From Escherichia coli (GTDB lineage Bacteria; Pseudomonadota; Gammaproteobacteria; Enterobacterales; Enterobacteriaceae), in assembly GCF_003334335.1 (NCBI RefSeq), contig NZ_QOWQ01000022.1: a stretch of 64,000 nucleotides of DNA. One strand, 5' to 3'. This document shows, piece after piece, positions 48,156 to 49,208 of the stretch. Below the pieces are notes generated by a model, which was not told the DNA's origin, ran no database searches, and saw nothing but the letters and a program-made list of their open reading frames with translations. The position numbers were made by a program, and so were the translations under genes. The first letter of the stretch is position 1; every line of letters starts with the position of its first letter.

Positions 48156-49208
48156 TTAAGCCTGCGGCTGAGTTACAACGTCTTTGATGCCTTTAACTTC
48201 GATCTCTACGCGACGATCCGGAGCCAGGCAGTCGATCAGTGCAGCACGCTGTTTCACGTTGTCACAGGTGTTGCCAGTAACCGGGTTGGATTCGCCCATA
48301 CCACGTGCGGAGATCTTGTCTGCCGGGATACCTTTGGAGATCAGGTAATCAACAACAGACTGAGCACGGCGCTCGGACAGACCCTGGTTGTAAGCGTCAG
48401 AACCGATGCGGTCAGTGTAACCCAGAACAACTACGGAACCGTCTTTCGGATCCAGGTTGCTCAGCTGGCTGTACAGCTGATCCAGAGCAGCCTGACCTTC
48501 CGGTTTCAGGGTTGCTTTGTTGAAGTTGAACAGAACGTCAGACTTCAGAGTGAAGTGCTTGGTCTGTACTTCCGGTGCCGGAGCTGGAGCCGGAGCAACT
48601 ACCGGAGCTGCTTCGCCCTGACCGAAACGGTAGGAAACACCCAGGCTCAGCAGACCGTTGTCCGGACGAGTACCAATGGTGTTTGCGTCACCGATGTTGT
48701 TGGTCCACTGGTATTCCAGACGGGTAGCGATTTCAGGAGTGATCGCGTACTCAACACCACCTGCGAAAACCGGAGAAACGCCAGTGTCGTGGTCTTTAAA
48801 GGATGCGCCACCAGGTACGTTAGCCTTGGTGTCTGCACGCCATACCATACCACCCAGACGAGTGTAGATGTCCAGATCGTCAGTGATTGGGTAACCCAGT
48901 TTAGCGGTCAGCTGAACGCCCTGAGCTTTGTATGCGCCGTTGATGTTGTCGCCTTTGTACGGCATACGACCTAACCAGTCGTAACCCATTTCAAAGCCAA
49001 CATACGGGTTAACCTGGTAACCACCAAAAGCACCTGCACCCAGTTGGTTTTCGTGGGTCGGACCATTGTTAGGAATAAAACCAGTGTCATGGTACTGGGA
49101 CCAGCCCAGTTTAGCACCAGTGTACCAGGTGTTATCTTTCGGAGCGGCCTGCGCTACGGTAGCGAAACCAGCCAGTGCCACTGCAATCGCGATAGCTGTC
49201 TTTTTCAT
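48156..49208 (-). CDS. ompA: outer membrane protein A (variant surface-loop allele)
   Basis: ORF 48156..49280; start placed at [21 protein letters not shown] (350 aa); Pro-Ala hinge APAPAPAP and OmpA-like C-terminal domain. Confidence 0.96.

Follow-up and report, generated by a model that had tools for sequence, protein, structure and literature searches.

The window analysed here, a 64,000-nucleotide stretch of Escherichia coli DNA, carries ycbZ, matP, ompA, sulA and sxy in the same order as K-12, with ompA located between matP and sulA. The ompA coding sequence (48156..49208, minus strand) consists of 350 codons plus a TAA stop codon and was assigned by translation, NCBIfam, Pfam and comparison with identical annotated genes. 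Translation from the ATG at 49208 to the TAA at 48158-48156 on the minus strand yields a protein of 350 aa. This protein matches the NCBIfam model NF008071 ('porin OmpA') with 674.7 bits, the cutoff being 277, and the match covers residues 1-350 and profile positions 1-358. In addition, Pfam assigns OmpA_membrane (PF01389) to residues 23-199 (E 7.8e-79) and OmpA (PF00691) to residues 226-321 (E 6.7e-24), and the Pro-rich linker APAPAPAP is visible in the translation between the barrel and the C-terminal peptidoglycan-binding domain. A longer ORF of 374 aa starting at a GTG at 49280 was rejected as an artefact of the ORF listing, as the ATG at 49208 agrees with K-12 and with all annotated genomes.

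For comparison, ompA of MG1655 (NC_000913, b0957) served as reference, both in a protein alignment and codon by codon. The signal peptide (codons 1-21; 49146..49208, minus strand) is identical to K-12 at the protein and DNA levels. Codons 193-350 (48159..48632, minus strand), comprising the end of the barrel, the Pro-rich linker and the periplasmic domain, encode the same protein sequence as in K-12 and carry three synonymous differences. Upstream of the gene, in the 5' UTR and promoter region (49209..49470, minus strand), the 260 bases preceding the ATG show no change relative to K-12, that is, the native expression signals are retained. Downstream, direct reading and the K-12 alignment revealed an intrinsic terminator at 48112..48135 (minus strand), composed of CCCCGCAGCTGCGGGG followed by eight T residues. 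It differs from the K-12 terminator in one base of the stem and by one extra base beyond the T run: the stem reads CCCCGCAGCTGCGGGG here, which is a perfect palindrome, as compared to CCCCGCTGCTGCGGGG in K-12, and the extra base is a C. A scan for promoter and terminator patterns missed this terminator because its hairpin loop is shorter than 3 bases, and all remaining matches of the scan were at chance level only.

Loop differences and match to a described allele

The alignment with MG1655 OmpA revealed nine substitutions (N46P; S87D, V88N, E89I; S129A, Y132P, N139D; H176N; M186L) and a four-residue insertion, GASF, in loop 3. In loop 1, FIPNNG replaces the FINNNG of K-12 through a Pro codon (CCT) in place of an Asn codon (AAC) at codon 46 (49071..49073, minus strand; mature position 25). 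Loop 2 reads DNING as compared to SVENG, with Asp-Asn-Ile for Ser-Val-Glu at codons 87-89 (48942..48950, minus strand; mature positions 66-68). Loop 3 is KSNVYGKNHD in K-12 and four residues longer here, since codons 129-139 (48792..48824, minus strand) encode ANVPGGASF plus K and D in place of SNVYGKN, including the four-codon insertion GGCGCATCCTTT (GASF). In loop 4, DAHTIG is changed to DANTIG by an Asn codon (AAC) replacing His (CAC) at codon 176 (48681..48683, minus strand; mature K-12 position 151), and just after this loop GMLSLG is changed to GLLSLG by Leu (CTG) for Met (ATG) at codon 186 (48651..48653, minus strand; mature K-12 position 161). The remaining barrel residues, like the signal peptide, the linker and the entire C-terminal domain, are those of K-12. 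Every loop string listed in the initial annotation is reproduced by this alignment, and the K-12 loops given there agree with b0957. Its further claim that the barrel strands and the periplasmic domain are unchanged likewise holds, as dN is 0 in the non-loop barrel codons and the C-terminal protein sequences are identical.

To place these changes on the barrel, as the initial annotation had proposed, we used an AlphaFold (AF2) model built on 34 enterobacterial OmpA sequences, whose confidence is moderate (mean pLDDT 63.7) and from which strand and loop positions only were taken, together with the topology given by Liao 2017 (PMC5413513). The model predicts eight strands between residues 27 and 195 and puts the changes at the low-confidence tips of the four hairpins: the loop 1 tip corresponds to residues 43-49, loop 2 lies between strands E70-84 and E87-107, and the loop 3 tip lies between E112-130 and E136-155. 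D139 and L186 fall into the ends of strands E136-155 and E184-195, respectively, and thus lie within the initial part of strands 6 and 8 in the model; codon 186 is thus among the first residues of strand beta-8, adjoining loop 4. In agreement with this, Liao 2017 (PMC5413513) lists mature positions 114 and 161 as transmembrane residues adjoining loops 3 and 4, outside the loops proper. Accordingly, the description of the differences as lying in the exposed loops applies to the tips, but N114D and M161L (D139 and L186 in the present numbering) are to be placed at strand ends.

At the DNA level, the gene differs from K-12 ompA at 52 positions in 1053 bases, including the 12-base insertion. The nine replaced codons account for 18 base changes, and 23 further codons show synonymous differences, 20 of them in codons 44-185 and three in the last 150 codons. 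Codon comparison and dS delimit a variable barrel-coding segment, codons 44-186 (48651..49079, minus strand), which contains the 12-base insertion, every one of the nine replacements and all but three of the 23 synonymous differences. Given 52 differing positions, multi-base codon changes and 23 synonymous differences, this is a genuinely different allele and not the outcome of a few point mutations or of sequencing error. That the differences merely reflect a misremembered K-12 sequence, an error of sequencing or assembly, or a pseudogene is exceedingly improbable, since the MG1655 alignment returns every stated difference, at least 40 independent complete genomes carry the gene in identical form, and the uninterrupted reading frame matches the family over its full length. 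The gene is a normal ompA with an intact frame and the expression signals of K-12, and the alterations of the protein are confined to its exposed tips.

Comparison with published ompA allele types gave a full match to pattern (II, alpha) in the nomenclature of Liao 2017. All loop states of pattern II are present, i.e. Pro25, DNI at 66-68, ANVPGGASF plus K and D, and the loop 4 Asn (mature numbering), as are the residues A175, N203 and G251 that define pattern alpha; the C-terminal 158 residues equal those of MG1655, which itself is (I, alpha). According to PMC5413513, it is mature residue 151 in loop 4 that distinguishes pattern II from pattern III. The ompA2 allele of Power 2006 is the same type, as its reference strain B194 is assigned pattern (II, alpha) in PMC5413513. 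With all four loop strings and the alpha C-terminus in common, no difference from ompA2 / (II, alpha) is apparent at the protein level, and the Leu at mature position 161 and the Ile at 93 are among the reported states. Many pattern II genomes, such as O121 (WP_000750419.1), also carry I93V, which is absent here; the sampled O121 genome, one mismatch away, indeed has the same loops plus I93V. The allele also belongs to the longer of two isoforms, 'OmpA-short' and 'OmpA-long', that a nanobody study from 2025 (PMC12259851) distinguished in E. coli and whose structures it solved with isoform-specific nanobodies; loop 3 of the allele is four residues longer than that of the K-12 OmpA-short. Chain A of the OmpA-long structure PDB 9FZD, in complex with nanobody Nb39, is identical in loops 1-3 over residues 21-195, the long loop 3 included; it has His and Met in place of Asn176 and Leu186, respectively, and therefore represents pattern III and not II. 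K-12 OmpA, i.e. (I, alpha) with structures 1BXW, 1QJP and 9FZC, shares signal peptide, strands, linker, periplasmic domain, promoter and 5' UTR with the gene described here and differs from it by the nine substitutions and the four-residue insertion at the tips of loops 1-4.

The allele is widespread. The protein equals RefSeq WP_001307702.1 ('MULTISPECIES: porin OmpA [Enterobacteriaceae]'), and the exact sequence occurs on at least 1000 contigs; genes that are 100% identical are present in strains LR-29-1 and AW1.7, where they are annotated as 'porin OmpA' WP_001307702.1. Of 5426 complete E. coli genomes, 605 carry a version of the gene with at least 99% identity, and in at least 40 the identity is 100%. 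The segment coding for the long loop 3 is found in 2064 of the 5426 genomes (38%) and the loop 4 segment as present here in 620 (11%), 83 of which match it exactly. Liao 2017 (PMC5413513) reported (II, alpha) as the second commonest pattern, with 20.5% among 78 isolates, and Liao 2022 (PMC9560509) found it mostly in phylogroup B1 (91%) and to 6% in phylogroup A. The allele is thus already described and common, under the names ompA2, pattern (II, alpha) and OmpA-long, and the difference from K-12 is correctly identified and ordinary. Altogether, we are highly confident that the window carries a normal, functional ompA gene with the widespread allele known as ompA2 (Power 2006), pattern (II, alpha) (Liao 2017) or OmpA-long.

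The divergent tract and its chromosomal background

Two tracts of the window diverge from K-12, one at ~28.5-34 kb, covering the elf fimbrial operon, and one at 37634-50379, which includes ompA. Elsewhere, the window differs from MG1655 at seven positions in 1-28500 and at two in 50380-60839, amounting to nine differences in ~39 kb. The second tract (37634..50379; ~12.7 kb) extends over ycbX/rlmL, uup, pqiABC, rmf, fabA, ycbZ, matP, ompA and sulA, and ompA forms its sharpest peak of divergence. Its relation to AW1.7 changes along its length: there are four differences to AW1.7 as compared to 63 to K-12 at 37.6-40.5 kb, 54 as compared to 66 at 40.5-47.6 kb, and 11 as compared to 76 at 47.6-50.4 kb, with ompA alone showing 0 differences to AW1.7 and 52 to K-12. 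Outside this tract, the window resembles K-12 and not AW1.7. The tract as a whole is 100.0% identical in five complete genomes, of which LR-29-1 is the nearest; over 41 kb, it is 99.96-99.98% identical to the window, and it displays the same mosaic relative to K-12. As this distribution of differences shows, the tract is internally mosaic, and it is best read as a product of homologous recombination. The ompA allele consequently resides in a tract of different ancestry, because the tract is mosaic, diverges within a K-12-like backbone and is common to LR-29-1.

The strain belongs to a phylogroup-A-type, K-12-like lineage, and its ompA allele is not private to it. The initial annotation had taken the loops to mark the strain as non-K-12; this is borne out by the elfC deletion and the prophage inserted into serT (see below), but the backbone, with nine differences in ~39 kb, is that of a close K-12 relative. 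A Shigella origin or an unsampled lineage was suspected from a best match of 99.3% in a 24 kb search. This assignment was overturned by a search with the tract alone and by the comparison with LR-29-1; the low value arose because 1.2 kb of the query lay in a prophage absent from close relatives.

A number of further features were noted in the window. At 28500-34000, ~60 differences from K-12 are spread over the elf / ycbU-F fimbrial operon, with flanks that are nearly identical, and this tract is partly identical to AW1.7. It likely represents another recombination import touching a surface structure, as judged from the pattern of differences. Within it, the usher gene elfC (28867-30959) has suffered a 505-base deletion relative to K-12, which corresponds to K-12 positions 1000537 to 1001043, has its junction near 30185-30188 and leaves ORFs of 455 and 228 aa. 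As elfC is intact in both K-12 and LR-29-1, the deletion is specific to the strain or to a very close clade. The end of a lambdoid prophage inserted in the tRNA-Ser(UGA) gene serT occupies 60780-64000 and encodes, all on the minus strand, a tyrosine integrase (60981-62000), a small DUF4224/Xis-like ORF (61978-62220) and an exonuclease-domain protein (62288-63970). What is left of serT is its 3' 60 nt (60780-60839); ARAGORN detected no tRNA in 60000-64000, and an intact serT copy presumably lies at the far end of the prophage, beyond the window. Among complete E. coli genomes, the best match to the prophage end reaches only 98.7%. Two Rfam families score above their gathering thresholds in the window, namely the PyrD leader (33843-33916, plus strand; 97.9 bits) and the sRNA ES036/CssrF (14047-14089, plus strand; 53 bits), both collinear with K-12. 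The ompF gene (15546-16634, minus strand) encodes a protein identical to K-12 OmpF and is preceded by a single-base deletion relative to K-12 at 16653, just before the start codon. Since OmpF is identical to K-12, one major phage-receptor porin of this strain is of the K-12 type while OmpA is not. A near-K-12 backbone with an identical OmpF can thus still display a different OmpA surface.

Age and origin of the barrel classes

The divergence of the two barrel classes was estimated by the method of Nei and Gojobori, and all dS and dN values given here are rough estimates from single pairs and short segments. For barrel codons 22-195, the window allele yields dS 0.23 and dN 0.038 relative to K-12, dS 0.23 and dN 0.008 relative to Citrobacter amalonaticus, and dS 0.14 and dN 0.013 relative to E. 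albertii. Nucleotide identity over the barrel is 94.8% with C. amalonaticus and 96.0% with E. albertii, as compared to only 92.5% with K-12. For codons 196-350, dS is 0.026 and dN 0 relative to K-12 and dS is 0.11-0.33 and dN 0.003-0.058 relative to the outgroups. When the barrel comparison with K-12 is split, loop codons show dS 0.50 and dN 0.10 and non-loop codons dS 0.11 and dN 0. The two E. coli barrel classes differ at silent sites as much as different genera do. This silent divergence peaks at the tips between identical flanks, a pattern that fits either an old polymorphism maintained at the cell surface or repeated small exchanges of loop segments.

Outgroup OmpA sequences were obtained from one scan of species-representative genomes, which provided about ten outgroup genomes. 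OmpA of E. albertii, C. amalonaticus and C. sedlakii is likewise 350 aa long and shares loops 2 (DNI) and 3 with the allele described here. The 350-aa OmpA of Salmonella enterica subsp. arizonae has DNI in loop 2, a near-match in loop 3 (SNTPGGASYKD) and Pro in loop 1, and the Citrobacter sequences carry Asn in loop 4 as well. The loop 4 Asn is common in the outgroups, as is a Leu where strand 8 begins, although the states of loops 1 and 4 are mixed among them. The outgroup proteins differ from the window allele by a species-level divergence of the C-terminal half (dS 0.11-0.33) and by an L/V exchange at the beginning of strand 8 (SLG as compared to SVG). Because E. albertii, Citrobacter and S. 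arizonae carry loops 2 and 3 as found here, it is probably the short loop 3 and the SVE loop 2 of K-12 that are derived, leaving the present allele with an ancestral appearance.

How the allele came to differ so strongly from its K-12 counterpart may be explained in several ways. We tentatively consider, as a possibility falling well short of an expectation, that the barrel classes constitute an old, possibly trans-species polymorphism under frequency-dependent selection, and that a short recombination import that swapped the class in this lineage would have altered, all at once, adsorption of Gp38 phages, recognition by antibodies and possibly receipt of F-type plasmids. Alternatively, the barrel segment might have been acquired recently from Citrobacter, E. 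albertii or Salmonella instead of being an old E. coli polymorphism. The identity of loops 2 and 3 with E. albertii, C. amalonaticus and C. sedlakii and the closer resemblance of the barrel to C. amalonaticus (94.8%) and E. albertii (96.0%) than to K-12 (92.5%) speak for such a transfer, and horizontal transmission of OmpA has indeed been suggested (Liao 2022; PMC9560509). However, a silent divergence of 0.14-0.23 is too large for a recent import from the outgroups sampled, none of the nearest ones being a recent donor at this distance; moreover, 38% of the complete E. coli genomes belong to the long-loop class, which extends over several phylogroups (PMC9560509), and the C-terminal half is ordinary E. 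coli sequence, with dS 0.026 to K-12 as compared to 0.11-0.33 to the outgroups. A recent interspecies origin is therefore very unlikely in our view.

It is also conceivable, if improbable, that the loop differences have no functional meaning and are a neutral marker of lineage, carried along by the chromosomal background or hitchhiking in a recombination tract. The (II, alpha) pattern does follow phylogroup, with 91% in B1 (PMC9560509), Nielsen 2020 (PMC6995065) credits chromosomal history for most of the distribution of OmpA patterns, and the allele arrived within a 12.7 kb tract and not by itself. What neutrality accounts for poorly is the position of the changes: all nine replacements and the insertion are at the four exposed tips, while dN is 0 in the rest of the barrel and no replacement occurred in the C-terminal part. 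Furthermore, the replaced codons differ by two to three bases, silent divergence is highest at the loops (dS 0.50), and natural OmpA variants are discriminated by phages and nanobodies (PMC12259851, PMC12032242). Since the literature already covers the allele, its frequency and phylogroup bias, as well as the crystal structure of a nearly identical protein, the scientific addition made here is small. It modestly extends this knowledge by quantifying a loop-centred silent divergence at genus level, by pointing to a derived state of the K-12 loops, and by locating the allele in a mosaic tract of a K-12-like chromosome.

Predicted consequences for ligand recognition

OmpA is predicted to keep its structural role, since neither the eight-stranded barrel nor the periplasmic domain nor the expression signals depart from those of K-12. 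The altered tips of the four extracellular hairpins form the surface with which phage adhesins, antibodies and other ligands of OmpA interact, and the allele likely changes recognition by OmpA-binding phage adhesins and antibodies. The proposal of the initial annotation that phage susceptibility may be affected finds support in published work. Across isolates, ompA2 has been associated with reduced phage sensitivity and lysis (Power 2006, as summarised in PMC5413513 and PMC9560509). In the work of Lutz 2025 (PMC12032242), eight natural OmpA variants were cloned in MG1655 delta-ompA; broad-host Gp38 phages infected all of them, and narrow-host (type-2) Gp38 phages were restricted to variants that paired one form of loop 2 with two particular forms of loop 3. 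Because MG1655 was the permissive control in that work, the combination of DNI with the long loop 3 appears to be non-permissive for type-2 phages. Judging from this literature, narrow-host T-even-type phages whose Gp38 adhesin needs K-12-type loops 2 and 3 should not adsorb to the present strain, and broad-host Gp38 phages should still do so.

Antibodies and nanobodies raised against K-12-type OmpA should likewise fail to bind, considering that nanobodies Nb01 and Nb39, which contact all four loops, are strictly isoform-specific, OmpA-long being recognised by Nb39 and not by Nb01 (PMC12259851). The efficacy of phages, nanobodies or vaccines made for K-12-type OmpA loops is thus not to be assumed for this strain. 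When compared in one MG1655 background, (I, alpha) and (II, alpha) behaved similarly with regard to surface charge, hydrophobicity, biofilm formation and killing by neutrophil elastase (PMC9560509). Since both patterns were statistically indistinguishable in that study, any effect of the allele would be ligand-specific and not general.

The initial annotation had mentioned colicins along with phages; a literature search for colicin effects of natural ompA alleles retrieved nothing. According to the title of Bosak 2016, colicins U and Y recognise loop 1 of OmpA, and the change in this loop is N25P (mature numbering). With regard to conjugation, TraN-gamma of the F plasmid docks on E. coli OmpA, and the loop 4 exchange G154D blocks this contact (bioRxiv 10.1101/2023.02.09.527952). 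No published test of natural ompA alleles in TraN-gamma conjugation was found in our literature search; the H151N exchange of the present allele is located three residues from the G154D site.
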